Source: Amphiscolops sp. MND2022
Lineage: Eukaryota
Length of the DNA stretch: 64,000 bases
Direction: 5' to 3'
Assembly (NCBI GenBank): GCA_964187785.1
Contig: OZ076410.1
Span: forward strand, 26,722,001 to 26,786,000
The notes under the pieces are model-generated. The model made no database searches. It worked only from the letters and a program-made list of their open reading frames with translations, and had not been told where the DNA came from. The position numbers and the translations under genes are program-made. This document shows positions 13,777-64,000 of this stretch, piece by piece; the stretch's first letter is position 1, and each line of letters opens with the position of its first letter.

Positions 13777-13811
13777 GCTCGCGGGTTTTGTTAATGCGAT
13801 CCGTTGTCTTA

Positions 13812-16486: not shown

Positions 16487-16703
16487 TGTTAAGATCGCTA
16501 AATCTAGGTTTAAAACAGGTTAGGTACAGTAATATCTCTTCAGCTGTTTCTGGATCTATCTCAAGTACATTATGGCAAGAGTATCGTATCTTCTACATCG
16601 TATCGTATAAACATAAATAGAGCAGTAGTTAATTCAGTTGTTTATGAGTTTGTTTGACAACAACATTGTTGCTCTTTTCGGGTTGTGACCTTCGTATGTC
16701 ATA
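16487..16703 (-). repeat. 5' LTR of element B
   Basis: Copy of 11252-11468; the terminal CA is mutated to TA on the plus strand. Confidence 0.95.
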
Positions 16704-40350: not shown

Positions 40351-41914
40351 TGTCGCAGGCGGCCGCCTGCGATGGTAACAGGTACACGGTCGCATATGGT
40401 TATTGCAGGGCCCTACCCGGAACAATTCCGCTAGATTGAGGAAATACAAGCAGTTGAGCCAAGAGGTCCAAGGCAGACATAATTAAAACTTTTACAAAAA
40501 AACTGTTTTGTATTACTGGTTTGTGTTACTATAGCATGTAATTGCATACAGTCAGTAGCTATATTACTTGTTAGTTATATTTTAAAACAAGTAAATATAA
40601 TTAGATGTGCTGTGAAATGGACACCAAGGCGTACAGGTAGAGGAAACGCGTTCAAAGTGTTTCCTCTCCTGTCGCTGTGGACAAGAAGTCCAAATTAAAT
40701 TCAACCAATCACATCTCAGCATTCAACTGAGCACTCTAATACAGCGTTGATATTAGTGGACATTATGGCTACGCGCCGTTCCTTTTCAAATAAAGATATA
40801 CTCGCTAAGGCGATGGGACACTGAGTCCAATTTGACTGGTGCTTTCATGATTGTAGTAAAAGACTTAATTTGAAGAATAGTGTTGCGTACAATTACATTC
40901 TTACAAATAAAGGTGCTATATCTGATGCCCCCTTCATGGCTCAAAGGCCGTATTTGGCCAAAGTCCAAATTCTCCTGTCTAAAGTATATGCGAGTGTGAT
41001 CAAAACATGTAATTATTACATGAATGTTACATGCAGTGTTGCCTTCATCGTCATAAAAGTGCAGTTGTCCCTTAAGGACGAGCGAGGCGGTGTAACGCCT
41101 TTGAAATGGCCAATAGGTCATTGCGTCATGTAACCCTGAAAGAGGTGATGCTTTTTTAGAATAGTACTTATCAATTTTTAGAACATGACAGTTCTTTTTT
41201 CGATAGTCATGCAGTCTATCATATATATACCCGGGACTCTTGGACCGGAGGACACAATTTAGTTATATATGCAGCCTATGAATTGATCTTATTCTGTTTG
41301 CAAGCCTAAAGATAATTAATTATTACCTCTTGCAATTGTCCCTTATGCCTTCTACAAGGAAACAAAAGGCGAAAGCTAGAAAGTCATGGGAAAAGGACAT
41401 GATGTCTGACTTTAAAAATATGGACGTAATGATAGGAAATGAAAACACTAATCCTATTGAACGTGAACTTTCAAACATGATCGGAACTGTGGTAAACGAT
41501 CAAGACATTGAGTCCAATCCCCAATCTTCGCGGTATGAAATTCATGGAAATGAATTTGGGCATTATGCTCATGAAAATGCAATTCCTAGGCAAGATAGAA
41601 TTCGAGAGACGCTGGAAACTTTTACTAGAGAATTCAACATGAGACTTTCACAAGAAATGGATTCAATGATGTCAATATTGCATAATCAGATAAACAGGGC
41701 GATAAGCACAGCAATCAAACCGAGAGAGTGATTCCAAAGATTCAAAATATAGTGAGTTCGATTTCATCCTCAGGGAATCGAGACACTGAGGCCAGTTCGT
41801 CCCCCAATAGCCAGGAAACCGCTGAAATGAACAATGGGTTTAGAAATAAAATTGCGAAAAAGGACTCACAGTCTACTGGTGACCTTAGAACACCTACAGA
41901 CAGCAGTCCTTACA
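40351..41914 (+). repeat. Putative 5' LTR of element D (about 1564 bp)
   Basis: Start supported by 82-bp copies after PPTs (2 mismatches); end inferred from ...TTACA followed by PBS-like TGGTGACAGGAG. No full 3' LTR in the window to confirm the length. Confidence 0.65.
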
Positions 41915-41926
41915 TGGTGACAGGAG
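41915..41926 (+). promoter_or_regulatory. Putative PBS of element D
   Basis: TGGTGACAGGAG directly after CA; from memory one mismatch to a tRNA-Leu-type PBS (unverified). Confidence 0.55.
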
Positions 41927-43043
41927 CTACCGACACCCAACGGCAATTTCCTGAATTCCTGACTGGACGAATCCACTCGCACCCGAACCTTGAGAGACAA
42001 GAATCAAGCCATAACGTCTCTTTGGACACTACTCTACCTGCCCCAGTGCCTGAGGTGCCACAAACACCCCAGGACCCGATAAACAGATTGGCTGATGTGC
42101 TGGTCAATCTCCAGACAAACCACACTCGATGACAATTAGACCAGTTACAACCACCCCATGACATTTGATGGCAGAAGTGAGAAATTTCAATTCTTTGAGG
42201 ACTTGTTCCATACAAGGATAAAAATGCAACCCGTAATGACCGAGCAAATGAAAATTAATAATTTTCACTCCTTGCTCCGGAAGGAGGCACTGCAAACATT
42301 CAGGAACATAAACACCATCAACCGTCAAACACTTGAAGACGTCCTGGGCATATTCCGACGCAAATATGTAAAACCAGAATCGCAGGCAACAGCCAAACAC
42401 AAATGGCACAGACTCATTTTTGACCCTAATACGATGAAATTGCCTGAGTTTTTGGAGGAGCTGAATCAAGGTGCCGAGAAAGCCTTTGGTGAAAATGCCA
42501 AAAGCATGATTGACAGCTTGGTCCATGCCAATCTACCACCAAAGCTAAAGCGATCTGTCAACATGGCCCGTCTAGAAAATGGGACATATGAAGAAATTGT
42601 AGCTCATCTTGAAAGAGAGCTCGAACTCAATGCATTGGAGGAATCGGATGACCTAGCAATCGCCACAATGGCCTCAGCGTCCACAAGTAGCCGAAACTTA
42701 CTATCCACTGGCATTGACACCAACAAAGAAGCACAATGCGCCTACTGCAAGGCAACCGGCCATTTTTACAAAATTGTCCAAAGTTGAAAAAGAAAACGGA
42801 ATTAGAGGACAAGACTGGCAAGAAATCGCAGCGCCCAACATACCCATCGTGTGATACATGCGGGAAAAAGAATCACCCGACGGAACGATGTTGACAAGGC
42901 GCTGGAGCGCATCAACGACCCAAGAGGAATCGCAATGATGACAAAAATAACGATGACTCAAAAGAGGATGAAAAACCCAAGAAGACAAATAATAATAATG
43001 AAACATCCTCCTCAGGCCAATCCAATTCCAAGAAGCCCGTGTC

Positions 43044-43053
43044 AAAAAACTGA
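43044..43053 (+). promoter_or_regulatory. Predicted -1 ribosomal frameshift site AAAAAAC followed by the gag stop
   Basis: A AAA AAC then TGA; the pol frame (ORF from 43056) is -1 relative to gag. Confidence 0.7.
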
Positions 43054-43055
43054 TT

Positions 43056-46000
43056 TTGCCACGACTCCAAATACATGACTATATGCCAGTACGACAATAT
43101 GTCATATCATATCCTCCAATAGTAAACATCCGACAATATGTTAAAGACACCAATTGCATCCAGTCCGTTGTCTGGCAGCAACAGATTGAAAAAGCCTACA
43201 TCAAAACTTACAAAGCAGTACATAATGATCGCCCAGACCAATACTATGACATGGACTACACTAAAAACTTTACGACCCAATTCCGACCTTACCATTAAAC
43301 GAAAATTACAACACTCAATACATAGACCGCGACTACGGAAAAGACCCGTATTGGGATGATGAAATATACGATAAACAAAACCTACAATTTAGAGGTGACG
43401 ACTATCCTCCAACGGATGACGAAGAAGATCCTGAAATACGGGACAACAAACTAACTCAAACCCTCATTGAGCTTTGGCAAACAAACTCCGAAGCAATGTT
43501 CTCAGAAATTGAGGAATCATACCATCAGGAAGACCCCAAGTGCCTTTCTAGCCTTTTCGACAAAACAGCCTTCTTGCACCTTCTAGTTGAAAAGGAGGGA
43601 GAAGCATCATACGTTCCCCTTTCAACAAACCTTGGACACAAATTCAAAAGACGGATGCTGTATTTCCCAATGGATTTTGGGGAGCTAACCTTAGACGGCC
43701 TAATAGACACTGGGGCCCACTCCAGTGCAATACCAGAAGCAGATCTCCGGAAAATACGCTTATGGGTGCCTCAATCCATAGTAAAGGAGGGACCTGTTCC
43801 ATCTTTCCAAATAATGGTCGCAAATGGGGATTTAGAAACCCCGAAAAGTACCGTCGAACTAAAGTTTGAAGTCGGAGACATAGAGTTCCACGAAATTTTT
43901 TTAGTAATGGAAAAATTGTCTAGTCCCATAATTGGACTGATGTTCCTGCAAAGAAACCACACAGTCCTGGACATGCACCAAGGTTTTTTAAACTTTCCCT
44001 ATTTCTCAATGCAACTCAAAACGGCTGACCACAAAGACTCAAATGTATTGGAACCTATCGTCAACCCCGAGGATGTCACAATTTCGCCAAATGACCATGC
44101 AGTCATACCCATTCAATCTCAAATCTACGCAGAAAATGCTGTTACGGGCATACTAAAACCCAGTGACCTTCTGCATGAAGAAGGCGACATAACCTTTTGT
44201 GCCGCTATAGTTACACTACATGAAGGGGCTATGAGGATACACGTTAACAATTTCACCGATCAACCCTACAAACTCAAGAAAGGGATGCATTTTGCCAATT
44301 TCTCAGTATTGACTCCTGAGCAGATGAAACATGTCAGGCCAATAGACCCAATGTCCACCTGACATTTACTTAACGAAAAGGAGGAAGATGCAAATTACTA
44401 CATTAGTAGTCTACATAAAGCCAACAGAAACAATGACCAATACGAACAATACTGGTTCCCAACACCTGAAAATCCAGGGGACGAAACGACCCATACCCCA
44501 ATACAACAAAAAATTCTCAGAGAATTACGAAACTTGCAAGATTTAGAACAACTCAATCCGCATGCTGATGCAGAATCCCGCCGAAAATTCCTCAACAATT
44601 TTGACTGGAAAGACTCAATGCTACAACAGCTTGTGATCAGACAAGAAGAAACTCTATTAGTAGAATTCCATGATATTTTCGCACGCCATAGATTTGACAT
44701 TGGCGTCAACGAAGAATTTACAGTCAAATTGACCCCAAAGGACGAATCACCTGCTTACAGTCAGAGCCTACCTACTCCGGTCAACCTCAAAGAGGACATA
44801 TTGTTCGAACTGGCACTACTTCACACGAACTGGTATTATAACGAATTTACCATTCTCAAAGTACGCCATTCCCATATTTGCGCAGAAAAAACCCAATGGA
44901 AAACTGAGACTGTTGGTGGATTTGAGAAAAAATAATAATCTGATCTCAAATGATTACGTCAATAACAACCACCCAGTCAGCACGTTGACGGACGTTGCGC
45001 AACACAAGGCCGGCAAAATTTTTTTGTAAACTCGACTGTTCACGAGCTTACCACTGTCTCCCCATTGCAGACCAGAAATCCATTGAATTGCTAGCCTTTA
45101 ACTTCACCAGCAGGACATTTCCCTACAGAAGATTAGCTCAAGGACTCAGCCGAGCCCTATCGGCCTTCTCCAGTTTGATGAGAGAATATCTGGATCGTGT
45201 TATAAAAGCCGACCAATGCGCTCAATATGAGACGATATCGGCGTTGCGGCAACGGATGCCAACCAACTCATCGCCAACTTAAGAGCAACATTCCAATGCA
45301 TTAGAGAAGCGGGAGTGAAACTATCCATGCACAAGTGCCATTTTGGGGCCACTGAAATCGATTTCTTTGGGAGAACAATTACCCCTGAAGGGGTCAAACC
45401 CCAAAAGGAAAGAATTACCAATTTCTTGGAAAAAACGAAATTTCCGAAGTCCAAGGAGGCCTTGCAATGTTATCTTGGCTTCCTCAATTACTACAGGAAC
45501 TACAAACCGATATTATCTGAAAAATTAGTTCCCTTCTTCCAACTCCTCAAAAAAGACGAAAAAGTCCTGGTGACAACAGAACTAGTAGAACAGTTCAATG
45601 AAATCAACAGAGACTTAGACAGGTGCAGTCAATTAGCGCTGAAACAACCCTTACCAAACAAGCAATTGGTCCTTATGACCGTTGCAAGTTTTACGGCAGC
45701 CGGTTACGCTATACTGACCGAACACGACCCAAATCAGAAATTCACTTCGCCAATAGCATATGGATCAAAAACATTCACTCCTTCTCAACTCAAAATGTCA
45801 ATATAAGCAAAATAATTCCTAGCAATATATTACGTGTTCAAGGAGTTTGGACACATCTTCTTGGGAACACCCAAACCAGTAATCATCCTCACGGACAATA
45901 AATCGGTCACAAGGTTCTTCCAGAAAAAGATAATACCACCGCCACTCTGGAACGCTTGTGATTTTGTGATCCAATTCGACTTCACAATAGCTCACATTAT

Positions 46001-48140
46001 TCCAGGTAAAAATAACACAGTGGCGGATTATCTGTCCCGCATGGAAATGGACTTCAATGAAAAATTAATCCTGAAAATACGTGAGGACGTGGAAACACAA
46101 CCAATCGAAGTTAATGTCCAATCGGCAGGAGTGTCCGAAGAAGAACAAGTCTTTTTCACTGAAGAACACAATGAAACGGAAGAACAGATTTGGGAACGGA
46201 AAAAACAATCCCAAAAGGGAGCCAAGGTCCTGAGCCAATAATACACATTGATGCAATTACGGAAAACTCTGTGGAGGAACTCACCAATTTCACTCAGAAA
46301 TTACGACGAACAATCCAATTATTACTAGAGCAATCTAAAGATCAGACGCTACGACAATTGAAAGCAAAAATCCAACAGGAGGAATATTCAGAGGAATATC
46401 TTCAACAAGTTATTCGGTACAAACATTACCTCCATAATTTTGACCGTCTAGTCCTGAAAGATGAAGTTATAACACGGTAATACTATGGTGAAACTGGACA
46501 AGTTAAAATCACCAAATCCTACTGCCAAAACATTTACTAAAAGAACTACTGAAAGCAATACACGGCACGGCACATCGACACCCAGGCATTTCAAAAATGC
46601 TACAGGAAATACGACAAAAATACTACTACCCAGGAACAGCAAAGCATGTTAAAGAGTGGGTAGAAGGATGCGAGATATGTGCCAAGGACAAACGTGTCCC
46701 GAACAACGCAATAACACTGGAACTCTTTAATTTGACTGAATGGGACCTTGGACCAGAAGATGCCATGCAAATTGACTTGCTACAAATATTGCCCGCTAGT
46801 GGAGGATACCAAACGGTAATGACAGCGATTGACGTCTTTTCAAGATATTTATTTGCATACCCGCTAATTGAGGCAACTGCCACAAATGTATTGAAAGTGA
46901 TATTTGATATCATGACAAAACATTCATACCTGCCAACAACCGTCATCACGGACAAGGGTCCGCGTTTACCTCCACAATTATAGCGGAAATTACAAAAGTT
47001 TTCGGCATAACACTTAGATGCGCCACAACTAAACACCCGCAGACTATTGGCAAACTAGAAAGGACGCATGCCTCACTTAAAACAAATTTAAAAATGGCCT
47101 CAGGGGAATATCGACGACAATGGCACAAATACCTGCAAGTAGCTGAGCTCAACTATAATACAACATACCATTCTAATATCGGATGTGAACCGAGTAAAGT
47201 CTTTCATGGCCGAATTCCCTTCAACGTTCTAGATCATAAATTGGGAAACAATCCCAATAAAAATTTCCTGCCAACTACGGAACTTGCGGAAAAAGTACAA
47301 CAGAGGACAAAAACCCTCATTGATCAAACCAAGAAGAAGATCATGCAGTCCTTTTTGAAATACAAAGACTACTATGACAGAAAGGCCAAAGCTGCTCCGC
47401 TTAAACAAAAAAAGGACTATTGCTTTATATTGCAACCCAAATATGACAGTCAAGCATCAAAAGTTCCATTTAGAGAATACCGATGGATTCGAGATTCGAC
47501 CTTTCATCATTCAAAAAGTCTTAACAAACGATAAATATATCGTGCGTCGAATTATTACTGATAAAACGCAAATACTACATCGGATTAGACTGAAAAAAAT
47601 GTACCTAATACGCCCTTACAGGACAATTACGCCGGCGAAAAGCTACAACCCGACGAGGAGATAGTAATACCGCAAGACGATTTGTATACTATCTCATGGG
47701 AGGTAGACTTTGATTACGACTTATTTGAAACGAGAAAAGATGATTGGCCGGACACGGCCACGCGTCGGCTGAATGACGCCGCAAGCGGCGGAGTGAACTA
47801 TCAAGTCACCGAAGATGAACGCTGCAGCTTGGATGAAGATGGAAAACGCAGCGGTGAACAAGCGAATGCAAGTGACGTCAACGAGAATCAAATAAAGCCG
47901 ACCACCGGCCAACAGCCGAGACGCGACGTCCCCGCTAAATGAATCGCCTAGTGGGACAGAAAATGAAAATGACGTCACTAATGATTTAGACAACACGGAA
48001 ATCGCTTCAAATGGAGGCGCAGATATTACCGTGCCCGGAATATTGGAAAATGAAAAAACTGAAGAAAACTCTAGCCCTAGAGGAGGGAAATGTAAAGACC
48101 TAACCCCAGCCCCAACTTTTCTGATGAATACAGATACTAG
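43056..48140 (+). pseudogene. pol of element D (PR-RT-RH-INT, many frameshifts)
   Basis: LIDTGAHSS, KLDCSRAYH, frameshifted Y-DD at about 45226-45236, TVAS (RNase H), HPG...CEIC, MQIDLL, TDKG; long C-terminal tail ending DEYRY-TAG. Confidence 0.93.
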
Positions 48141-48363: not shown

Positions 48364-51300
48364 TTAGGACTTAGAAGTAGATTGTTCAAGTTTTCTTGGG
48401 CAGCACCCACCTCCGCAGGTTCCGTAGGGTCAAACATAACTTTCCGTTTCACCGCACCTGGGGATTTTTTCCGTCGACCAGAGTTGCTGGGAGAACTTGA
48501 ACCAGAGGCCGAACGACTAGAAGAGACTGACTTAGACTTTTGAGCGATAGACTTGTATGTTGCGTGCATTGTCTTGAAAAAGCTGTTTCTGCCAAAGGCA
48601 TCCACATGACTCCAAGGATCACACGCCACATAACCAGAATTAAACTGCCCAACAAGTTCACGAAACTTTGCAATTGACTCCTAACTTGTACATACAGAAA
48701 TAGCTTAAGGAAAACGGGCCAAATACGATTGTGATGGTAGAAGAACATCACCCAAGCTACCTGTGTGGCTTTGCGAATCTACGTCTTGAGATTGTATGGG
48801 AGGTAGTAAAGGGGTTTCTTCGGTAAGGCACAGACAGCTGAGTCGGAATAGTCGATACAGATGAGGACGATTCTTTAGCTCGGGCATTGTGGACAGTATG
48901 TCCACCATGTCTGTGAAACCTCCTGGTGAAAAATTCAAGCGAGAATACATCCGACGGAAGTGGCCTAAGAATTCCAAATATTCATCGCGACAGTCGTATT
49001 CAGTAGAGCCATCCAACCAGCCCCGGAGACTGAAACTTCGGCAAAGTGCCACGAAGCAAAATGAAGCTTGCTCTAGAGGAAGGTTCAACAAAATATGAGG
49101 ATCGGAACAGGCCATCCTCCTCGCAATATCTGCGTTTAAACTGACATGTCCAAGAAATTTTTCGAGCAGGAAAACGATGTAACTTCTCGCCTGAGCAACG
49201 AATTTTTCCTTGGCTTCTTCAACAAAGTGCGGAAGATTAAGGATAGGACCTTCCCTGTCGCTGTAATCCCTCTTTACTTTTGCGGTTGCCGCTTCATCAA
49301 GATCCAATTTCAGCCGTGAACGGGTTAGAAAGTCTCTGGAAGACAGGTGACGGAGTTCGGCTGCACGCATTATTGGTAGTTGTGTCCAATCAGTATCTTT
49401 GGGAAGATCTTTGATCAAAAGAGACCGGTAGCAAAGCCTGCGAACAGAGCAGTTCAATTGGCCGAAGGTGAAGAATCCTGAGTCTCGGTGGCCAACTAGG
49501 CTCCTCTCGAAGCACACATTGTCTAAACAAACAAATGGACGTTTAGGATATTAGACATCTATGTGAAAGGATACGATTTGCCACCTAAGAAATTTTCCTC
49601 CAATATTGGAAGGATATTTACAATCATATACAAGCCTCCCGTAGAATTCCAACTTGATAGGGAAGAATCTAATAATTTGCCACTCGAGAATCTGAGGCTG
49701 AAAAGGCACAGTAACTTGGTGAAAATTCTGAGAACAAAAGTATCAGATGCATACCCAAGAGATCATTTAGTAACATTATTCTTGACTCCCAGCATCTCAT
49801 ATGTTGGCGCGATTCTAGTAATATGATCCAAAAACGGCCCCCAGTTAGTGATGATTTCGGAACGAATAGTTGGAAAGGAGCGCATCCGTAAATCACAACT
49901 GAAGATAGCCTAGAAACAACAAAGTTTAGCACGAAGAAGGAAATACATGCAGGAAATGTCGAGGGTTAACAAGACCAACCTTGGCTAGCTCAGGAGTGCG
50001 GACGAACCAAGGCTCATCGAGGCTTCCGGCGAGGAAGGCTACCAATTATTTGAGCTGGGTGTAAATGTCATTGCGCACAAACACACTTCCCTCTCTTTTC
50101 CGCATCAGACTATGTAGTGACAGGACGTTGTAACGGAATGGGTACTCTATTCCTTTTGACAATAAGGACGATTGCTCGACTGTTTGCAGAACATCGGATG
50201 TACATCCCGACATACACACCATCTGGGGTGATTTCGATAAGAAGGAGAAAAGGCGTGCTACTGCGAGTAATTGGTTTCGGGCAAGGTGTGAGTTGGGGCT
50301 GTGGCGAGCAAGTTGGACTTTGACAAGTCTGTCGGCCTTCTAGTATCGAAGAGAAGCGACTTCATGTGTTCCCTGTTGTTCGAATTCCAGTGAATATAGA
50401 CCAGTCTCATTCACGGATAACGCTATGTCCTCGATGCCACGCAGGAAGACATGGTGGAAGATAGCCTGAAAGAATACAAGTAAATTGGAGTAATTACGTA
50501 CCAGCTTCATGACTTAAATGTCAACCTCTAACTGTGCCATCCTATCAACCTGAAGGAAAAGGAGAAGGGAATGGAACATCTGCTTACCGCGATCATGGTA
50601 GAGCTCCAGTCGAGGTCGCCGAACATTTCCTGGTGGTTAGTGAAGTTTCTCACCTCCGTCCAAAGTCCTTCTAAGACGCTGAGATTGCCAAAATGTGGTA
50701 CAAAGCGGGCAATGAGTAATATCTGGGTGCCAATCCGGACATCCTCAGGATTTGAAAGTCCCCAACCCCAGCCATGTACTCTTCGTAAAAAGGAAAGCAT
50801 GGTCCGATGTCCATCAGTGGAGCAAATTCAAAGAGCGGTTTTTCCTTTTCAAGCTCGATCGCCGATAGAATGTGTCCATCTCGGCCTCTAACAGCATGAA
50901 CGGTTACTCCGGGGATTTTGTCAAACTTGCCCAAGTGCTCATAGCGCCATCTCTGGTCCCCTCTCAAATGAGCTTCGGATTGATAATGCCTGCCAATTTC
51001 CCTAGCCCCTTTGGAATAACTCGACACGTTCGTTTTGCAAAATTGACAGTAAATTTTATGTTTATTGTGGAAAGGGTCTAACAGGACAGTAACAAACACC
51101 CTCGTCCACTGGATGCCTTAAAAATAGGCTGGCTTCATTACTTTCCCCGGTCGGCTCATCAGTCTACGCTTTTTGCGTGGGGGACTTGACACAGCGCCCT
51201 GTGGAGCAGTTTGAGCTTGAATGGTAGATAGTGGCTGGTAATCACCCTCGCTGTAGCCAGGGCTAGGGACAGTGTAGTAACTACCGCCGGGAAGAGACTC

Positions 51301-51902
51301 TCCTTCCATGGGTCCGCCCGCAACTCTTGGGTAGATTTTGCTGGCCCCGATTGAGCACCTGAACCGAACCCAGCAATCCCAATCTCCTCATCTGAGGCCA
51401 GGGCCCCACTGGTGTATCCATCAGTAGTGTAACCTTCGCTGTCATTCTCGATCTCAGAGGTGGCAGGCTTAGCCTTGAAGGGACTTTCTCCTCCAATCAA
51501 TGCCTTGCGAAATCGTGCTGGTGGTTGTCCCTTTCCTCCGTAAACGGCCTGGAGGACGAGCGCACGCATGCTGTGCAAGGATGTTCTGACCGCTTCATCT
51601 GAGATACATTTAAGAACAGCATGGATCTGTGGTTCACTAAAGGCCACTGTTGTATGTCCTAGTGAGAGTTCGACGGGATTAGTAGTAGTTTGCGCAATAG
51701 AGCTCGTCCATTTGGCGACATTGGTTCAGGAATTTTCAACATAAACAGAAAAGCTCTCTTCGGCACCACTGCTGGATGACATATTGGATGCCGGACGAAG
51801 GTCTGTGTTTTCACCACTAGTAGCAGTCGGTTGTTCCTCCACAGTTTCTGGAGTTTTATCCAAGAAAGGTGTTTTCACAATAGAGTGATCTTCTGACGAC
51901 AT
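48364..51902 (-). pseudogene. Antisense hAT-transposase-derived gene of element D (only copy with the native C-terminus)
   Basis: Frameshifted chain from MSSEDH (51902) through the BED-like finger to ORFs 48705-49517 and 48255-48629; carries a 423-bp deletion relative to the other copies. Confidence 0.65.
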
Positions 51903-52839
51903 TCCTGAAAGGAAAGAAGAAATTTAGCGGACAAACTTCCTAAATTTGAAATCCCTTGTGCCGCCTTAAATGCTTCCGGAAGTAAGAAAGTATTCAAAAT
52001 GAAACACGTGAAATATGTGTTTATTGGGACAGGAAGTACGTGAACCGATTTGGACCCTGATCAAGTTCATTTCTGTTCAAATCAAAGTAGGAAACACCTA
52101 CCGCTTTGTGGTTAAATCCGAGGTTATGGCCGGTTGGATCACAGGGGTTTTGGAGAATTGCGGAATTGGTGTGAGGAGATGTATTAGAATGCCGGAAAGC
52201 AGTCTAAAATGCAGGAAGACAGCTATCCAATGTATCCAAGTGAAGACCACAAGAATGAGAATGTTGTAACTTTGTCAACAACTCTGTATGTATTTGATAG
52301 ATATGACGGCGGAAAGCTCTGGTGTTCAAAAGTGTAGGGCGTCAAAAATCTGCACGTGAAGAGAATTGAAATTGGCTGGGAGTTGTCAATGGGGACCTGG
52401 AGTCGATTGTCCCGGGAAAAATCCACAAGGGAAGGGGCGATTGGACACTGAGTCCCAAGAGGAAGACTATGTTAAAGTGGAGTATAAATAAATATAAAGA
52501 GAACCTAATTGTCGAACTATCGGCTAAATAGTGATAATGACAATGATTAAACACTGGGTAATACAAGTGAAGAAGAAAATGGAAGAATTTAATATGGCAG
52601 ATATGAAGAGACTTAGCGGCTTGATGAAAGGTTTTAAGAAGGAAAATTTTGTTTATTGAAATATTTCCAGACGGGAAACGAAACAGAAAACCCGGGAAAA
52701 AAATCGTGATATTGTGAAAATCCCGCGAGGCGAAGGATCGCCATTCGTACGATTTTAACCGCTCAAGTCAGCTGCCTCCGAACCCCAAAATACTAAAGTT
52801 CTTTCCAAAATTGCCAAAAAAATAACAAAAGCTAGATTC

Positions 52840-53750
52840 ATGTCTGACTTTTCTGAAACATTCCCTTTGGACTTCCAGGGCGTTGCTCAATCTGTTGGAG
52901 CTCCTGCAATAAAATACATTTCAAGCGACGAAGGCGAGAGAATGGATTCCTTCGACGGTGACTCAGGGACGACGTCTACGTCTCATCTGAAGAAGAAACG
53001 CTGGATATCGAAATTATGGCCAGATGCATAGAGAGACAAATGACTGAACCCATTGCTATTCCCAACGCTGAGACATCAGGTACTCAAGCTAGGTGCGGGA
53101 CACCTAAGCCAGATTTGCCGCCCTTCCCTACATTTACACAACAGTTTTTCAACCTGGGTATGGGCAACGGACCTATTGGACGGGATGACCGAATTGACCC
53201 AATCATCCCATTAATATTTGCATACGACCTACGACCTAATATTGATACCCTAATGTTGCCACCGCCAGAAGATCAGGGACCAGCCTACGAACAAGATATA
53301 CCGAGTTGCTCTTACTCGGCAAGCTCTACTTCAGTCGAGACTGTCGCAAATCACTTCAATGATATGACAGTGTCTGGAAACGCTGACCTGTTGGGCTGTT
53401 CAGACTGCGTGGTTTGTGGGAAGCCAGTTCAACAAATACAGGATGAAGCAACTATTGACTATCTCGACAAAACGGTTGTTCCAGGCGAGACGTTAGCTGA
53501 AACCGAGAGAAGAAAGAGAGCTTTCTTGGACGGTATGGCTGCTGGCACGTTTTTACTCGTGCCAGGGGGAGTGTCGCAGGCGGCCGCCTGCGATGCTAAC
53601 TGGTACACGGTCGCATATGGTTATTGCAGGGCCCTACCCGGAACAATTCCGCTGAACGGGTTAGAAAGTCTCTGGAAGACAGGTGACGGAGTTCGGCTGT
53701 ACGCATTATTGGTAGTTGTGTCCAATCAGTATCTTTGGGAAGATCTTTGA
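52840..53750 (+). CDS. Sense accessory ORF (ORF3), copy 1; unknown function
   Basis: 244-aa ORF 53016-53750 plus an acidic N-terminal piece from 52840 one frameshift away; C-x2-C-x2-C motif; reads through the PPT and U3. Confidence 0.55.
53564..53571 (+). promoter_or_regulatory. PPT of element D (copies at 58764-58771 and 63965-63972)
   Basis: AGGGGGAG directly before TGTCGC, the LTR start. Confidence 0.75.
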
Positions 53751-56660
53751 TCAAAAGAGACCGGTAGCAAAGCTTGCGAACAGAGCAGTTCAATTGGCCG
53801 AAGGTGAAGAATCCTGAGTCTCGGTGGCCAACTAGGCTCCTCTCGAAGCACACATTGTCTAAACAAACAAATGGACGTTTAGGCTATTAGACATCTATGT
53901 GAAAGGATACGATTTGCCACCTAAGAAATTTTCCTCCAATATTGGAAGGATATTTACAATCATATACAAGCCTCCCGTAGAATTCCAACTTGATAGGGAA
54001 GAATCTAATAATTTGCCACTCGAGAATCTGAGGCTGAAAAGGCACAGTAACTTGGTGAAAATTCTTAGAACAAAAGTATCAGATGCATACATAAGATCAT
54101 TTAGTAACATTATTCTTGACTCCCAGCATCTCATATGTTGGCGCGATTCTAGTAATATGATCCAAAAACGGCCCCCAGTTAGTGATGATTTCGGAACGAT
54201 TAGTTGGAATGGAGCGCATCCGTAAATCACAACTGATGATAGCCTAGAAACAACAAAGTTTAGCACGAAGAAGGAAATACATGCAGGAAATGTCGAGGGT
54301 TAACAAGACCAACCTTGGCAAGCTCAGGAGTGCGGACGATCCAAGGCTCATCGAGGCTTCCGGCGAGGAAGGCTACCAATTATTTGAGCTGGGTGTAAAT
54401 GTCATTGAGCACAAACACACTTCCCTCTCTCTTCCGCATCAGACTATGTAGTGACAGGACGTTGTAACGGAATGGGTACTCTATTCCTTTTGACAATAAG
54501 GACGATTGCTCGACTGTTTGCAGAACATCGGATGTACATCCCGACATACACACCATCTGGGGTGATTTCGATAAGAAGGAGAAAAGGCGTGCTACTGCGA
54601 GTAATTGGTTTCGGGCAAGGTGTGAGTTGGGGCTGTGGCGAGCAAGTTGGACTTTGACAAGTCTGTCGGCCTTCTAGTATCGAAGAGAAGCGACTTCATG
54701 TGTTCCCTGTTGTTCGAATTCCAGTGAATATAGACCAGTCTCATTCACGGATAACGCTATGTCCTCGATGCCACGCAGGAAGACATGGTGGAAGATAGCC
54801 TGAAAGAATACAAGTAAATTGGAGTAATTACGTACCAGCTTCATGACTTAAATGTCAACCTCTAACTGTGCCATCCTATCAACCTGAAGGAAAAGGAGAA
54901 GGGAATGGAACATCTGCTTACCGTGATCATGGTAGAGCTCCAGTCGAGGTCGCCGAACATTTCCTGGTGGTTAGTGAAGTTTCTCACCTCCGTCCAAAGT
55001 CCTTCTAAGACGCTGAGATTGCCAAAATGTGGTACAAAGCGGGCAATGAGTGATATCTGGGTGCCAATCCGGACATCCTCAGGATTTGAAAGTCCCCAAC
55101 CCCAGCCATGTACTCTTCGTAAAAAGGAAAGCGTGGTCCGATGTCCATCAGTGGAGCAAATTCAAAGAGCGGTTTTTCCTTTTCAAGCTCGATCGCCGAT
55201 AGAATGTGTCCATCTCGGCCTCTAACAGCATGAACGGTTACTCCGGGGATTTTGTCAAACTTGCCCAAGTGCTCATAGCGCCATCTCTGGTCCCCTCTCA
55301 AATGAGCTTCCGATTGATAATGCCTGACAATTTCCCTAGCCCCTTTGGAATAACTCGACACGTTCGTTTTGCAAAATTGACAGTAAATTTTATGATTATT
55401 GTGGATAGGGTCTAACAGGACAGTAACAAACACCCTCGTCCACTGGATGCCTTTAAAATAGGCTGGCTTCATTACTTTCCCCGGTCGGCTCATCAGTCTA
55501 CGCTTTTTGCGTGGGGGACTTGACACAGCGCCCTGTGGAGCAGTTTGAGCTTGAATGGTAGATAGTGGCTGGTAATCACCCTCGCTGTAGCCAGGGCTAG
55601 GGACAGTATAGTAACTACCGCCGGGAAGAGACTCTCCTTCCATGGGTCCGCCGGGCAACTCTTGGGTAGATTTTGCTGGCCCCGATTGAGCACCTGAACC
55701 GAACCCAGCAATCCCAATCTCCTCATCTGAGGCCAGGGCCCCACTGGTGTATCCATCGGTAGTGTAACCTTCGCTGTCAGTCTCGATCTCAGAGGTGGCA
55801 GGCTTAGCCTTGAAGGGACTTTCTCCTCCAATCAATGCCTTGCGAAATCGTGCTGGTGGTTGTCCCTTTCCTCCGTAAACGGCCTGGAGGACGAGCGCAC
55901 GCATGCTGTGCAAGGATGTTCTGACCGCTTCATCTGAGATACATTTAAGAACAGCATGGATCTGTGGTTCACTAAAGGCCACTGTTGTATAACCTAGTGA
56001 GAGTTCGACGGGATTAGTAGTAGTTTGCGCAATAGAGCTCGTCCATTTGGCGACATTGGTTCAGGAATTTTCGGGCAACTACTTTGAATATCAGGTTCGG
56101 CCTCCTTGCTAACTGCATTGCGCTGTTCTGGCTCCTCTCCTTCCACTGATGAATTGAGATTCATGTCGACAATGCTGGAGGTGGGCCTATTCAACAGTCC
56201 ATCGACCCCTGTGCTGTCTTACAGATCTTCCTTATTCACTGGCATCGGTTTCAAAATAATTCTTCACCCGATCCTGTGTCCAATCTATTGAAAGAGCATC
56301 AATTTGACTGAAGATGCCTTGCTCCTTAGGGTCGCCTTGATGTTTTCCTTGATGGCTTGTCTCAAGCGCTTCAGACTCCGAGGCCTTTGCTAGCTCTGTC
56401 TCGAGTTCTTTTGATTGCGGGACCTGTGTCGTCGTTGACAAGAAGGTGATGTCTAAACTAGGGTCATTGGTTGCAAGGGAGAGCAAGGTATTATCAACAT
56501 AAACAGAAAAGCTCTCTTCGGCACCACTGCTGGATGACATATTGGATGCCGGACGAAGGTCTGTGTTTTCACCACTAGTAGCAGTCGGTTGTTCCTCCAC
56601 AGTTTCTGGAGTTTTATCCAAGAAAGGTGTTTTCACAATAGAGTGATCTTCTGACGACAT
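53654..56660 (-). pseudogene. Antisense hAT-like gene, copy 2 (C-terminally truncated at the array junction)
   Basis: ORFs 56232-56660, 55994-56194, 55005-55982 (325 aa; YCQFCKTNVSSYSKGAREIVRHYQSEAH at 55302-55385), 53895-54266 and 53596-53853. Confidence 0.65.
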
Positions 56661-56662
56661 TC

Positions 56663-56859
56663 CTGAAAGGAAAGAAGAAATTTAGCGGACAAACTTCCTA
56701 AATTTGAAATCCCTTGTGCCGCCTTAAATGCTTCCGGAAGTAAGAAAGTATTCAAAATGAAACACGTGAAATATGTGTTTATTGGGACAGGAAGTACGTG
56801 AACCGATTTGGACCCTGATCAAGTTCATTTCTGTTCAAATCAAAGTAGGAAACACCTAC
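56663..56859 (-). other. Candidate 197-bp 5'-UTR intron of the antisense gene (also 51905-52101 and 61863-62059)
   Basis: Donor G|GTAGGT; acceptor CTAAATTTCTTCTTTCCTTTCAG|GAATG, ending 2 nt before the ATG. Confidence 0.55.
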
Positions 56860-58039
56860 CGCTTTGTGGTTAAATCCGAGGTTATGGCCGGTTGGATCAC
56901 AGGGGTTTTGGAGAATTGCGGAATTGGTGTGAGGAGATGTATTAGAATGCCGGAAAGCAGTCTAAAATGCAGGAAGACAGCTATCCAATGTATCCAAGTG
57001 AAGACCACAAGAATGAGAATGTTGTAACTTTGTCAACAACTCTGTATGTATTTGATAGATATGACGGCGGAAAGCTCTGGTGTTCAAAAGTGTAGGGCGT
57101 CAAAAATCTGCACGTGAAGAGAATTGAAATTGGCTGGGAGTTGTCAATGGGGACCTGGAGTCGATTGTCCCGGGAAAAATCCACAAGGGAAGGGGCGATT
57201 GGACACTGAGTCCCAAGAGGAAGACTATGTTAAAGTGGAGTATAAATAAATATAAAGAGAACCTAATTGTCGAACTATCGGCTAAATAGTGATAATGACA
57301 ATGATTAAATACTGGGTAATACAAGTGAAGAAGAAAATGGAAGAATTTATTATAAAGGAAATGAAAGTTGAATCAGCAGTGTGACAAGATGTCAAAATTG
57401 GAGTTCGTGGCTATACAGTTTGGTGTCAACTTTGTTGTTATTTACAATTTACAGCATTATGTGGATAAAGTCTGCCAGCGGTATCTACATCATTTCATTT
57501 ATTTCGAAAACTTTGTTATTTTTGAGAAATTTTTCATGATTTTATCATTCTTTTATTTCGTTTCAAAGTCACTTTTTATTATTCCTTATATGACTTGGGA
57601 AGCCATTTTAACTGGGGAGGAATTTTGCTGCATTCCTATTGGTTGATCAGATTGATGGTGGACGGCGTGGCTGATTGCCATATCTTCACCTACTTGAAAC
57701 TCTCAAGTACCTGATGAGTGTTAATAAACACTTGTAGTAACACTCCTAGCTTGAGAGTGCTAGCATAACTGATGATGAGTAACAAAGTAATTGTCGGCAG
57801 ATATGAAGAGACTTAGCGGCTTGATGAAAGGTTTTAAGAAGGAAAATTTTGTTTATTGAAATATTTCCAGACGGGAAACGAAACAGAAAACCCGGGAAAA
57901 AAATCGTGATATTGTGAAAATCCCGCGAGGCGAAGGATCGCCATTCGTACGATTTTAACCGCTCAAGTCAGCTGCCTCCGAACCCCAAAATACTAAAGTT
58001 CTTTCCAAAATTGCCAAAAAAATAACAAAAGCTAGATTC

Positions 58040-58950
58040 ATGTCTGACTTTTCTGAAACATTCCCTTTGGACTTCCTGGGCGCTGCTCAATCTGTTGGAG
58101 CTCCTGCAATAAAATACATTTCAAGCGACGAAGGCGAGAGAATGTATTCCTTCGACGGTGACTCAGGGACGGCGTCTACGTCTCATCTGAAGAAGAAACG
58201 CTGGATATCGAAATTATGGCGAGATGCATAGAGAGACAAATGACCGAACCCATTGCTATTCCCAACGCTGAGACATCAGGTACTCAAGCTAGGTGCGGGA
58301 CACCTAAGCCAGATTTGCCGCCCTTCCCTACATTTACACAACAGTTTTTCAACCTGGGTATGGGCAACGGACCTATTGGACGGGATGACCGAATTGACCC
58401 AATCATCCCATTAATATTTTCATACGACCTACGACCTAATATTGATACCCTAATGTTGCCACCGCCAGAAGATAAGGGACCAGTCTACGAACAAGATATA
58501 CCGAGTTGCTCTTACTCGGCAAGCTCTACTTCAGTCGAGACTGTCGCAAATCACTTCAATGATATGACAGTGTCTGGAAACGCTGACCTGTTGGGCTGTT
58601 CAGACTGCGTGGTTTGTGGGAAGCCAGTTCAACAAATACAGGATGAAGCAACTATTGACTATCTCGACAAAACGGTTGTTCCAGGCGAGACGTTAGCTGA
58701 AACCGAGAGAAGAAAGAGAGCTTTCTTGGACGGTATGGCTGCTGGCACGTTTTTACTCGTGCCAGGGGGAGTGTCGCAGGCGGCCGCCTGCGATGCTAAC
58801 TGGTACACGGTCGCATATGGTTATTGCAGGGCCCTACCCGGAACAATTCCGCTGAACGGGTTAGAAAGTCTCTGGAAGACAGGTGACGGAGTTCGGCTGT
58901 ACGCATTATTGGTAGTTGTGTCCAATCAGTATCTTTGGGAAGATCTTTGA
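58040..58950 (+). CDS. ORF3, copy 2
   Basis: Near-identical to 52840-53750 with the same frameshift. Confidence 0.55.
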
Positions 58951-61860
58951 TCAAAAGAGACCGGTAGCAAAGCTTGCGAACAGAGCAGTTCAATTGGCCG
59001 AAGGTGAAGAATCCTGAGTCTCGGTGGCCAACTAGGCTCCTCTCGAAGCACACATTGTCTAAACAAACAAATGGACGTTTAGGCTATTAGACATCTATGT
59101 GAAAGGATACGATTTGCCACCTAAGAAATTTTCCTCCAATATTGGAAGGATATTTACAATCATATACAAGCCTCCCGTAGAATTCCAACTTGATAGGGAA
59201 GAATCTAATAATTTGCCACTCGAGAATCTGAGGCTGAAAAGGCACAGTAACTTGGTGAAAATTCTTAGAACAAAAGTATCAGATGCATACATAAGATCAT
59301 TTAGTAACATTATTCTTGACTCCCAGCATCTCATATGTTGGCGCGATTCTAGTAATATGATCCAAAAACGGCCCCCAGTTAGTGATGATTTCGGAACGAT
59401 TAGTTGGAATGGAGCGCATCCGTAAATCACAACTGATGATAGCCTAGAAAAAACAAAGTTTAGCACGAAGAAGGAAATACATGCAGGAAATGTCGAGGGT
59501 TAACAAGACCAACCTTGGCAAGCTCAGGAGTGCGGACGATCCAAGGCTCATCGAGGCTTCCGGCGAGGAAGGCTACCAATTATTTGAGCTGGGTGTAAAT
59601 GTCATTGCGCACAAACACACTTCCCTCTCTTTTCCGCATCAGACTATGTAGTGACAGGACGTTGTAACGGAATGGGTACTCTATTCCTTTTGACAATAAG
59701 GACGATTGCTCGACTGTTTGCAGAACATCGGATGTACATCCCGACATACACACCATCTGGGGTGATTTCGATAAGAAGGAGAAAAGGCGTGCTACTGCGA
59801 GTAATTGGTTTCGGGCAAGGTGTGAGTTGGGGCTGTGGCGAGCAAGTTGGACTTTGACAAGTCTGTCGGCCTTCTAGTATCGAAGAGAAGCGACTTCATG
59901 TGTTCCCTGTTGTTCGAATTCCAGTGAATATAGACCAGTCTCATTCACGGATAACGCTATGTCCTCGATGCCACGCAGGAAGACATGGTGGAAGATAGCC
60001 TGAAAGAATACAAGTAAATTGGAGTAATTACGTACCAGCTTCATGACTTAAATGTCAACCTCTAACTGTGCCATCCTATCAACCTGAAGGAAAAGGAGAA
60101 GGGAATGGAACATCTGCTTACCGTGATCATGGTAGAGCTCCAGTCGAGGTCGCCGAACATTTCCTGGTGGTTAGTGAAGTTTCTCACCTCCGTCCAAAGT
60201 CCTTCTAAGACGCTGAGATTGCCAAAATGTGGTACAAAGCGGGCAATGAGTGATATCTGGGTGCCAATCCGGACATCCTCAGGATTTGAAAGTCCCCAAC
60301 CCCAGCCATGTACTCTTCGTAAAAAGGAAAGCGTGGTCCGATGTCCATCAGTGGAGCAAATTCAAAGAGCGGTTTTTCCTTTTCAAGCTCGATCGCCGAT
60401 AGAATGTGTCCATCTCGGCCTCTAACAGCATGAACGGTTACTCCGGGGATTTTGTCAAACTTGCCCAAGTGCTCATAGCGCCATCTCTGGTCCCCTCTCA
60501 AATGAGCTTCGGATTGATAATGCCTGACAATTTCCCTAGCCCCTTTGGAATAACTCGACACGTTCGTTTTGCAAAATTGACAGTAAATTTTATGATTATT
60601 GTGGATAGGGTCTAACAGGACAGTAACAAACACCCTCGTCCACTGGATGCCTTTAAAATAGGCTGGCTTCATTACTTTCCCCGGTCGGCTCATCAGTCTA
60701 CGCTTTTTGCGTGGGGGACTTGACACAGCGCCCTGTGGAGCAGTTTGAGCTTGAATGGTAGATAGTGGCTGGTAATCACCCTCGCTGTAGCCAGGGCTAG
60801 GGACAGTATAGTAACTACCGCCGGGAAGAGACTCTCCTTCCATGGGTCCGCCGGGCAACTCTTGGGTAGATTTTGCTGGCCCCGATTGAGCACCTGAACC
60901 GAACCCAGCAATCCCAATCTCCTCATCTGAGGCCAGGGCCCCACTGGTGTATCCATCGGTAGTGTAACCTTCGCTGTCAGTCTCGATCTCAGAGGTGGCA
61001 GGCTTAGCCTTGAAGGGACTTTCTCCTCCAATCAATGCCTTGCGAAATCGTGCTGGTGGTTGTCCCTTTCCTCCGTAAACGGCCTGGAGGACGAGCGCAC
61101 GCATGCTGTGCAAGGATGTTCTGACCGCTTCATCTGAGATACATTTAAGAACAGCATGGATCTGTGGTTCACTAAAGGCCACTGTTGTATAACCTAGTGA
61201 GAGTTCGACGGGATTAGTAGTAGTTTGCGCAATAGAGCTCGTCCATTTGGCGACATTGGTTCAGGAATTTTCGGGCAACTACTTTGAATATCAGGTTCGG
61301 CCTCCTTGCTAACTGCATTGCGCTGTTCTGGCTCCTCTCCTTCCACTGATGAATTGAGATTCATGTCGACAATGCTGGAGGTGGGCCTATTCAACAGTCC
61401 ATCGACCCCTGTGCTGTCTTACAGATCTTCCTTATTCACTGGCATCGGTTTCAAAATAATTCTTCACCCGATCCTGTGTCCAATCTATTGAAAGATCATC
61501 AATTTGACTGAAGATGCCTTGCTCCTTAGGGTCGCCTTGATGTTTTCCTTGATGGCTTGTCTCAAGCGCTTCAGACTCCGAGGCCTTTGCTAGCTCTGTC
61601 TCGAGTTCTTTTGATTGCGGGACCTGTGTCGTCGTTGACAAGAAGGTGATGTCTAAACTAGGGTCATTGGTTGCAAGGGAGAGCAAGGTATTATCAACAT
61701 AAACAGAAAAGCTCTCTTCGGCACCACTGCTGGATGACATATTGGATGCCGGACGAAGGTCTGTGTTTTCACCACTAGTAGCAGTCGGTTGTTCCTCCAC
61801 AGTTTCTGGAGTTTTATCCAAGAAAGGTGTTTTCACAATAGAGTGATCTTCTGACGACAT
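58854..61860 (-). pseudogene. Antisense hAT-like gene, copy 3 (truncated)
   Basis: Near-identical to copy 2 (ORF 60205-61182, 325 aa). Confidence 0.65.
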
Positions 61861-63240
61861 TCCTGAAAGGAAAGAAGAAATTTAGCGGACAAACTTCCTA
61901 AATTTGAAATCCCTTGTGCCGCCTTAAATGCTTCCGGAAGTAAGAAAGTATTCAAAATGAAACACGTGAAATATGTGTTTATTGGGACAGGAAGTACGTG
62001 AACCGATTTGGACCCTGATCAAGTTCATTTCTGTTCAAATCAAAGTAGGAAACACCTACCGCTTTGTGGTTAAATCCGAGGTTATGGCCGGTTGGATCAC
62101 AGGGGTTTTGGAGAATTGCGGAATTGGTGTGAGGAGATGTATTAGAATGCCGGAAAGCAGTCTAAAATGCAGGAAGACAGCTATCCAATGTATCCAAGTG
62201 AAGACCACAAGAATGAGAATGTTGTAACTTTGTCAACAACTCTGTATGTATTTGATAGATATGACGGCGGAAAGCTCTGGTGTTCAAAAGTGTAGGGCGT
62301 CAAAAATCTGCACGTGAAGAGAATTGAAATTGGCTGGGAGTTGTCAATGGGGACCTGGAGTCGATTGTCCCGGGAAAAATCCACAAGGGAAGGGGCGATT
62401 GGACACTGAGTCCCAAGAGGAAGACTATGTTAAAGTGGAGTATAAATAAATATAAAGAGAACCTAATTGTCGAACTATCGGCTAAATAGTGATAATGACA
62501 ATGATTAAATACTGGGTAATACAAGTGAAGAAGAAAATGGAAGAATTTATTATAAAGGAAATGAAAGTTGAATCAGCAGTGTGACAAGATGTCAAAATTG
62601 GAGTTCGTGGCTATACAGTTTGGTGTCAAATTTGTTGTTATTTACAATTTACAGCATTATGTGGATAAAGTCTGCCAGCGGTATCTACATCATTTCATTT
62701 ATTTCGAAAACTTCGTTATTTTTGAGAAATTTTTCATGATTTTATCATTCTTTTATTTCGTTTCAAAGTCACTTTTTATTATTCCTTATATGACTTGGGA
62801 AGCCATTTTAACTGGGGAGGAATTTTGCTGCATTCCTATTGGTTGATCAGATTGATGGTGGACGGCGTGGCTGATTGCCATATCTTCACCTACTTGAAAC
62901 TCTCAAGTACCTGATGAGTGTTAATAAACACTTGTAGTAACACTCCTAGCTTGAGAGTGCTAGCATAACTGATGATGAGTAACAAAGTAATTGTCGGCAG
63001 ATATGAAGAGACTTAGCGGCTTGATGAAAGGTTTTAAGAAGGAAAATTTTGTTTATTGAAATATTTCCAGACGGGAAACGAAACAGAAAACCCGGGAAAA
63101 AAATCGTGATATTGTGAAAATCCCGCGAGGCGAAGGATCGCCATTCGTACGATTTTAACCGCTCAAGTCAGCTGCCTCCGAACCCCAAAATACTAAAGTT
63201 CTTTCCAAAATTGCCAAAAAAAATAACAAAAGCTAGATTC

Positions 63241-64000
63241 ATGTCTGACTTTTCTGAAACATTCCCTTTGGAGTTCCTGGGCGCTGCTCAATCTGTTGGA
63301 GCTCCTGCAATAAAATACATTTCAAGCGACGAAGGCGAGAGAATGTATTCCTTCGACGGTGACTCAGGGACGGCGTCTACGTTTCATCTGAAGAAGAAAC
63401 GCTGGATATCGAAATTATGGCGAGATGCATAGAGAGACAAATGACCGAACCCATTGCTATTCCCAACGCTGAGACATCAGGTACTCAAGCTAGGTGCGGG
63501 ACACCTAAGCCAGATTTGCCGCCCTTCCCTACATTTACACAACAGTATTTCAACCTGGGTATGGGCAACGGACCTATTGGACGGGATGACCGAATTGACC
63601 CAATCATCCCATTAATATTTTCATACGACCTACGACCTAATATTGATACCCTAATGTTGCCACCGCCAGAAGATAAGGGACCAGTCTACGAACAAGATAT
63701 ACCGAGTTGCTCTTACTCGGCAAGCTCTACTTCAGTCGAGACTGTCGCAAATCACTTCAATGATATGACAGTGTCTGGAAACGCTGACCTGTTGGGCTGT
63801 TCAGACTGCGTGGTTTGTGGGAAGCCAGTTCAACAAATACAGGATGAAGCAACTATTGACTATCTCGACAAAACGGTTGTTCCAGGCGAGATGTTAGCTG
63901 AAACCGAGAGAAGAAAGAGAGCTTTCTTGGACGGTATGGCTGCTGGCACGTTTTTACTCGTGCCAGGGGGAGTGTCGCAGGCGGCCGCCTGCGATGCTAA
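63241..64000 (+). CDS. ORF3, copy 3 (runs off the window end)
   Basis: Same sequence as copies 1 and 2. Confidence 0.5.

Follow-up and report, generated by a model that had tools for sequence, protein, structure and literature searches.

Tandem duplications are made by polymerase-theta end joining (TMEJ) in the repair mutants brc-1/brd-1 of C. elegans (PMC7368036) and TONSL of Arabidopsis (PMC13031629). As described in these two reports, they lie head-to-tail at apparently random places, are kilobase-scale (about 10-300 kb), carry short microhomology or small insertions at their junctions, and are rare in wild type. Tandem repeats derived from LTR retrotransposons have been described in plants. 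In the account of maize CRM1TR and CRM4TR, the monomer combines part of an LTR with the adjoining 5' UTR, and an illegitimate first junction was followed by homology-driven growth into long arrays in or near centromeres (PMC3648361). The Lathyrus satellites are described as tandem repeats that arose inside LTR elements, with arrays that are a property of the family and spread with the element (PMC7004042). The tandem LTR retrotransposons of rice and other plants are reported as tandem structures inside a single gypsy insertion, in which the whole element is repeated between full LTRs (PMC11899658).

The locus analysed here lies in a window of 64,000 nucleotides of the Amphiscolops sp. MND2022 assembly (contig OZ076410.1). 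As in the maize repeats, the unit joins part of an LTR to adjoining element sequence, but it is made up of the 3' internal region and 82 bp of LTR, in three copies and in an animal host. In contrast to the Lathyrus arrays, it is private to one dead insertion; unlike the tandem elements of rice, it has just 82 bp of LTR in the repeat, a single gag-pol and a non-homologous first junction. The analogy with plant LTR satellites drawn in the initial annotation is loose, the host being an animal (Wnt genes are present in the genome). The genome-wide set of duplications resembles the TMEJ products, with the differences that periods here are 0.5-8 kb, the genome is a natural one, the pathway is inferred, and the array junction has a 1-nt overlap. 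The preferred reading (probability about 0.8) is that a three-copy repeat formed in an old, broken Ty3/gypsy element by a break-and-rejoin duplication long after insertion, followed by one unequal exchange, and that no working gene was gained.

Structure of the element and the array

The host element is assigned to the Ty3/gypsy LTR retrotransposons on the basis of its LTR ends, target site and pol order. Pfam matches on fragments (some of them below the curated cut-off) gave the order protease, weak dUTPase-like match, RT/RNase H and integrase, and the element's own pol is broken. The complete 3' LTR (1,558 bp, 63973-65530 in window numbering) was found in the adjoining sequence together with the AGAAA-like target site that had been predicted there (AAAAA). 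Exact 5-bp target-site duplications were present in 8/11 relatives checked.

Table 1. Coordinates of the element, the repeat units, their junctions and the accessory genes (window numbering)
Feature	Position	Strand	Remarks
5' target-site copy AGAAA	40346..40350	+	AAAAA at the 3' side, past the window (4/5 match)
5' LTR	40351..41914	+	1,564 bp, TG...CA ends
gag frame start	41345	+	inside the 5' LTR
Primer-binding-site-like stretch	41915..41931	+	starts TGG, directly after the 5' LTR; candidate by sequence
Fragmented gag-pol	41345..48140	+	Ty3/gypsy order; single copy, outside the amplification
Antisense accessory gene, 3' end	48400..49317	-	left end approximate; outside the repeated unit, joined only by unit 1
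Unit 1	49318..53653	+	4,336 bp; most diverged copy, two later deletions
Antisense gene part, unit 1	49318..51902	-	common breaks near 50761 and 51687; further 423 bp lost
Sense accessory gene, unit 1	52840..53750	+	frameshifted near codon 43
Polypurine tract (53564-53571) and LTR bases 1-82, unit 1	53564..53653	+	3'-LTR-derived allele at LTR position 25
Junction 1	53653..53654	+	fuses LTR base 82 with internal base 49318; overlap of 1 nt
Unit 2	53654..58853	+	5,200 bp
Antisense accessory gene, unit 2	53654..56660	-	frameshifts near 56234, 56022 and 55095; truncated by the junction
Sense accessory gene, unit 2	58040..58950	+	same break as in unit 1
Polypurine tract and LTR bases 1-82, unit 2	58764..58853	+	same 3'-LTR-derived allele at LTR position 25
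Junction 2	58853..58854	+	same as junction 1 base for base
Unit 3	58854..64000	+	5,201 bp; ends at 64054 in the true 3' LTR, final 54 bp beyond the window
Antisense accessory gene, unit 3	58854..61860	-	truncated and frameshifted as in unit 2
Sense accessory gene, unit 3	63241..64000	+	same break; native stop lies beyond the window, at LTR bases 87-89
Polypurine tract and start of the full 3' LTR	63965..64000	+	LTR 63973 to 65530, passes the window end

The three head-to-tail units (Table 1) were delimited by self-BLAST and pairwise alignment. Every unit ends with the purine tract AGGGGGAG and LTR bases 1-82, as the initial annotation had reported, and the fusion of LTR base 82 to internal base 49318 that it described was recovered exactly at both junctions. 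Relative to the other units, unit 1 has lost 423 bp after 51735 and 442 bp after 52595. At least three units had been claimed; in this assembly the array has exactly three, with two junctions, since unit 3 leads directly into the complete 3' LTR. A long array running on past the window was ruled out on the same ground and by the 4/5 target-site match. In a genome search, the junction was matched in full at 2 of the 40 places listed, and it was absent from other insertions among the matches listed.

Ages and order of events

The two LTRs differ at 74 of 1,556 bp (4.9% divergence, 95% identical). Units 1 and 2 show 38 differences in 4,334 aligned bp (0.9%), and units 2 and 3 are separated by 11 substitutions in 5,200 bp (0.2%) and one 1-bp indel in an A-run, in line with the scattered single-base differences noticed earlier between these copies. 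The units are thus 5 to 23 times younger than the LTR pair, and the comparison of 38/4,334 with 74/1,556 (binomial P about 1e-48) supports a post-insertion timing. In addition, an allele at LTR position 25 that is derived in the 3' LTR occurs at all three unit ends, and neither in the 5' LTR nor in the LTRs of relatives.

The 46 variable sites among the units (21 derived in unit 1 alone, 13 common to units 2 and 3, 4 confined to unit 2, 7 confined to unit 3 and 1 unresolved) give the tree (u1,(u2,u3)). The order of events was insertion, then drift of the LTRs to 4.9% and frameshifting of the accessory genes, then the first duplication; unit 1 was later shortened by its two deletions, and the third copy appeared. 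The first duplication falls at about 18% of the element's age and the third copy at about 4%, with the caveat that gene conversion between units could blur these ages. Tree and ages fit the two-step history proposed at the outset, i.e. a duplication and then a recent, homology-driven third copy. Judged from its sequence, the element would have been old, broken and pseudogenised before the triplication.

These ages bear on an origin of the repeat in reverse transcription, through a template switch that returned from the internal region to U3. Strand transfers happen inside the LTR during LTR-element replication, and the junction does lie within the LTR, 82 bp past the polypurine tract. Units born in this way should be as old as the LTRs, and reverse transcription is not the source of the units because they are far younger than the insertion; they also have in common a mutation acquired by the 3' LTR once the element had inserted, and the junction occurs in no other insertion among those listed. 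Only gene conversion erasing nearly all divergence could rescue this origin, and the clock-like tree argues against that, which leaves it barely credible.

Condition of the accessory genes

Damage to the antisense gene was scored by indels relative to the relatives; in-frame stops were excluded, because the gene may have introns. Frameshifting indels in both accessory genes are common to all three units, including the break near codon 43 of the sense gene, whose family encodes 272-279 aa. Both genes were thus frameshifted before the first duplication. In units 2 and 3 the antisense gene is without its 3' end (about 300 codons), and in units 1 and 2 the junction deletes the native stop of the sense gene and appends 31 foreign codons. 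Pfam searches with both genes gave nothing near the cut-off. No longer homologue of a 483-aa antisense piece (taken from a relative) was found at E 0.001 among 6,904 candidates, which is weak evidence. For the 3' part of the antisense gene, a possible likeness to hAT transposases was probed by PDB profile search, fold prediction and fold search; there was no PDB sequence match below E 0.049, the model had a pLDDT of 49 and the best fold Z was 5.5, values that speak neither for nor against it.

According to the initial annotation, the repeat might raise the dosage of the two accessory genes. An amplification of this cassette that was selected for, or driven by the element, is very improbable, even though the unit spans most of the region from pol to the 3' LTR. 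It is contradicted at the protein level by the frameshifts that predate duplication; units 2 and 3 lack the antisense codons mentioned above, the sense frame has accumulated 5 amino-acid-changing and 2 silent changes, and the element's pol is itself broken. As far as the reading frames indicate, no working gene gained dosage, because the frameshifts are common to all units and units 2 and 3 are without the antisense 3' end. The triplication is likely neutral.

Junctions and proposed mechanism

The exact microhomology at the junction is 1 nt (T), which has a chance level of 45%. For the near-match CCG(C)T, from which a microhomology-mediated duplication had been proposed, 13% of 2,984 random position pairs did as well or better, and it was dropped as a clue to mechanism. 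The junction points to no single end-joining pathway, because the overlap is only 1 nt.

In the preferred break-and-rejoin reading, a chromosomal break would have been repaired by linking LTR base 82 to the upstream base 49318. The first junction is probably an end-joining product, of a polymerase-theta-like kind in which the sister chromatid would have served to extend the broken end, and the same process would be a likely source of many kilobase duplications across the genome. The 82-bp LTR piece would then merely mark the site where the break fell. The third copy was probably added by misaligned homologous exchange, which would reproduce the junction exactly; the crossover would lie within the final 369 bp of the unit. 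It counts against this step that, of about 4,300 homologous bases, only the final 369 can hold the crossover; these 369 bp are the third-longest tract of perfect identity, and so a possible, not the likeliest, place for it.

The same tract enters a rival account of the third copy, in which the first duplication is real and the assembly linked second units from two haplotypes by way of the one real junction. The switch point of such a chimera would likewise fall in these 369 bp, over which units 1 and 2 do not differ, and the 0.2% between units 2 and 3 could be an allelic distance. On the other side, 11 substitutions and one homopolymer indel are unlike error noise, the array contains no N gap, and no second copy of the locus of at least 96% identity was present among the LTR-search matches listed. 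Real triplications and an array of roughly ten units occur elsewhere in the sample, though these would share any weakness of the assembly. An artefact is considered unlikely, and an unequal exchange the more probable origin of the third copy.

The locus, a neutral triplication within a pseudogenised element, is of minor importance in itself. It is useful as a dated case of non-homologous duplication followed by homologous expansion, the first steps from retrotransposon pieces to satellites.

Duplications in relatives and in the genome background

Nineteen relatives (19 stretches, 354 kb) were scanned with one rule and yielded three clean tandem duplications, one of the accessory region and two of pol, where 5.3 were expected from the background. 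They are independent, with breakpoints different from those of the array. A relative on C9 has duplicated nearly the same accessory region, and two others carry partly deleted duplications there, all of which speaks for the dosage proposal; the duplication of pol in two relatives speaks against it. In total 4/7 family events (including three partly deleted ones found by eye) fall in the accessory region, compared with its 36% share of the length (P 0.27), so that a mild bias toward this region may exist within the family. Selective amplification of the accessory cassette, as first claimed, did not hold up: relatives duplicate pol as readily, and the background is about 15 events per Mb.

For the background, 1.0 Mb of arbitrarily chosen genome gave 15 kilobase-scale tandem duplications (16 rule matches minus one 114-bp minisatellite), two of them triplications, with periods of about 0.55-7.9 kb and identities of 93-99.7%. 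A 160-bp blunt duplication was left out as below the 400-bp rule. Junctions were too complex to score in 3/15 events. Among 16 scored junctions, 7 had insertions and 5 had microhomology of at least 3 nt (P 0.003); these 5 were among 9 simple junctions (chance 6.5%, P 1e-4). By its junction sequences, the genome-wide set shows the pattern described for TMEJ-made duplications (PMC13031629, PMC7368036).

It is conceivable, though doubtful, that the germline of this animal is a natural tandem duplicator, producing end-joined duplications of 0.5-8 kb, of which roughly 15 per Mb survive (about 16,000 in the whole genome), possibly through a lost or weak suppressor such as TONSL-MMS22L or BRCA1. The MMS22L C-terminal family gave no match in this genome, and neither did the positive controls, so that this negative carries no weight. 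Of wider interest is how densely recent kilobase duplications bearing end-joining scars are spread over this genome: should the density prove unusual among animals, it would provide a natural model for a mutational process familiar chiefly from worms, plants and tumours that are deficient in repair. If the tandem-duplicator reading is true, retrotransposon copies with their LTR clocks would date the process, the array being one datable example.

The background also bears on the proposal that the array is a nascent macrosatellite that is still growing in the population and has larger alleles elsewhere in it. Two copies suffice for unequal exchange to produce further ones, the third copy arose recently, C8:20.02-20.04 Mb holds an array of about ten units of 1.4-1.7 kb, and CRM1TR and CRM4TR are described as having grown from LTR-element pieces (PMC3648361). 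The proposal is nevertheless improbable: the assembly holds three units and two junctions and no long array, and a single expansion event falls in the last 18% of the element's age. Background duplications mostly remain at two or three copies, and one of the two triplications repeats the two-step pattern (1.1%, then 0.4%).

Structure and extent of the array

The locus is a real, ordinary triplication inside a dead element. Self-BLAST of the window returned a direct repeat with a period of 5,200 bp and a shorter first copy, and three units (u1, u2 and u3) were delimited by alignment (see table). At both junctions, LTR base 82 was fused to internal base 49318, and each unit ended with the purine tract AGGGGGAG and the first 82 LTR bases, as the initial annotation had accurately described. 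When the adjacent DNA was checked for array length and the 3' LTR, unit 3 was found to run on into a complete 3' LTR, differing from the 5' LTR at 74 positions in 1,556 bp and followed by AAAAA (AGAAA at the 5' end). Exact 5-bp target-site duplications were found in 8/11 relatives checked (other insertions of the family in this genome). A genome search with the junction gave full-length matches at 2 of the 40 places listed, both inside the window, these counts being lower bounds. Since unit 3 leads into a complete 3' LTR with a target-site match, and the junction occurred only at those two listed places, the array consists of three units in one insertion. Without two of its units the element would measure ~15.6 kb, as does a relative that is not rearranged.

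The pol fragments were in Ty3/gypsy order, with a weak dUTPase-like match after the protease (E 8e-4, below the cut-off). The gag frame begins within the LTR, so that the 3' LTR also has a gag start, reading on into flanking DNA.

Coordinates of the features (window numbering unless a contig is named; L001 and L002, neighbouring DNA just past the window)
Feature	Coordinates	Size	Remarks
5' LTR	40351-41914		
Unit 1	49318-53653	4,336 bp	alignment
Unit 2	53654-58853	5,200 bp	alignment
Unit 3	58854 onward		alignment; runs on into 3' LTR
Complete 3' LTR	63973-65530	1,558 bp	neighbouring DNA past the window
dUTPase-like match	43496-44362		weak
gag frame start in LTR	41345-41914; L001:2967-3530		
Conserved sense accessory gene	52840-53660; 40351-40439	273 aa	
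Deletion junction, unit 1	52590-52605		442-bp deletion
Second family member	L001:4300 to L002:4800		opposite orientation
Tandem duplication, C9 relative	C9:56,807,584-56,817,357	4.8-5.0 kb	accessory region, 98% identical
Tandem duplication, C8 relative		3.5 kb	pol
Tandem copies, C3 relative	C3:4,348,235-4,351,125	770 bp	pol, ~3.8 copies
Background triplication	C3:50,176,612-50,184,850		>=99% identical
Background triplication	C8:20,175,842-20,179,859		>=99% identical
Background array	C8:20,023,103-20,038,319	1.4-1.7-kb units	about ten units, 93-97% identical
Perfect palindrome	10469-10644	176 bp	
Perfect palindrome	9719-9780	62 bp	
32-bp minisatellite	23639-24330		about 21 copies
Gypsy-like element	11252-16701		minus strand; direct repeats of 215 bp, 97% identical, at a spacing of 5.2 kb

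Timing and order of the duplications

The LTR pair differed by a Jukes-Cantor distance of 0.049, units 1 and 2 by 0.0088 and units 2 and 3 by 0.0021; relative to the age of the element, the two splits thus fall at 18% and 4%, respectively. With the relatives as outgroups for polarity, the 46 variable sites comprised 21 derived in u1, 13 shared by u2 and u3, 4 private to u2, 7 private to u3 and 1 unresolved; the sequences thus point to a clock-like unit tree, (u1,(u2,u3)). At LTR position 25, the 3' LTR and all three unit ends carried a derived base that was absent from the 5' LTR and from the relatives' full-length LTRs. The low distances, the tree and this shared allele indicate chromosomal duplications long after insertion. 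An origin of the units in reverse transcription was ruled out by distances far below that of the LTR pair and by the 3'-LTR-derived allele in all unit ends.

Divergence, tree and private deletions all lend the first duplication good support. The two deletions of unit 1 are later still, because the relatives and units 2-3 retain those bases. The junction of its 442-bp deletion carried an apparent 4-nt insertion resembling sequence just downstream, possibly templated.

The near-microhomology CCG(C)T, previously offered as a clue to mechanism, proved uninformative: exact microhomology was one base, reached by 45% of random pairs, and the looser match was attained by 13% of 2,984 random pairs. The junction alone indicates a non-homologous event and nothing further. 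The second junction was identical to the first, as would result if the third copy arose by homologous misalignment between existing copies. Because unit 2 carries the unit-3 alleles as far as 58484, the exchange is confined to the final 369 bp of unit 2; among the perfectly matching tracts of the older copies, this one ranks third in length. That the third copy comes from the assembly rather than the genome is judged unlikely.

Coding content of the units

The sense accessory frame is one of a numerous family of mostly 272-279-aa proteins (96 matches among 3,038 candidates), for which no Pfam match was found. The conserved gene crosses the polypurine tract and extends 89 bp into the LTR. As its native stop (LTR bases 87-89) lies beyond base 82, units 1 and 2 have 31 foreign codons at the junction in place of the last residue. 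The sense gene was frameshifted near codon 43 in all three units, with an additional pair of compensating indels downstream. In the antisense gene, frameshifting indels near 55095 and 56022 were common to all units (in-frame stops were left out of this damage count), and an acceptor-like stretch preceded the first methionine. The repeated unit does not include the 3' end of this antisense gene (about 48400-49317), leaving truncated copies in units 2 and 3. Given the shared frameshifts and this truncation, the proposed rise in dosage of both accessory genes was abandoned; the triplication raised the dosage of no intact gene.

Duplications within the element family

In 19 stretches with relatives (354 kb; most, not all, with a near-complete element), one uniform rule identified three clean tandem duplications. 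The C9 duplication was independent, covered nearly the same accessory region and had a 1-nt insertion at its junction; the other two lay in pol. Nearly all of the 5' LTR was also lost from the C3 relative. Three more, partly deleted duplications were recognised by eye (accessory region, two; host flank, LTR and gag, one). Breakpoints differed among all family duplications. The accessory region makes up 36% of the length and held 4/7 family events, including the studied locus (P 0.27); with 2/3 clean duplications in pol, selective amplification of the accessory cassette was not borne out. The family rate (3 observed, 5.3 expected) was not above background. About 0.8 kb past the 3' LTR lay another, more distantly related member of the family, with 63-81% identity.

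Genomic background and comparison with known systems

Five arbitrarily placed 200-kb regions of this genome only (C5, C3, C8, C1 and C10) were sampled. Matches per region numbered 0, 3, 6, 2 and 5, with none in the C5 sample; after one minisatellite was dropped, the density was 15 tandem duplications per 1.0 Mb (95% interval 8-25). Periods were about 0.55-7.9 kb and identities 93-99.7%, and the set included a 5.5-kb duplication (99.3% identical) and two triplications, one with the same two-step pattern as the studied locus (1.1% then 0.4%).

Tandem repeats are known to be seeded by retrotransposon pieces (PMC3648361; PMC7004042), and the CRM-derived repeats (PMC3648361) have first two steps that the studied locus resembles. 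The host is an animal, since Wnt genes are present. Whole-element tandems are described as common in plants (PMC11899658); the locus was negative in tests for that class. It was also negative in satellite tests, contrary to its earlier reading as possibly a nascent macrosatellite. The C8 array with 302-bp subrepeats is a better young-macrosatellite candidate.

What deserves further attention is how densely end-joined kilobase duplications are spread across the genome. Sixteen junctions were scored (12 background, 4 family), with classes assigned by eye from local alignments: 7/16 carried insertions of 1-16 nt, some of which later substitutions may mimic, and 9/16 were simple. Microhomology of 3-4 nt was present in 5/9 simple junctions, where chance predicts 6.5% (P 1e-4, or 0.003 over all 16). 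Reports on worm and plant repair mutants describe short microhomology and small insertions at polymerase-theta-dependent tandem duplications (PMC7368036; PMC13031629), the same signature as at this genome's junctions.
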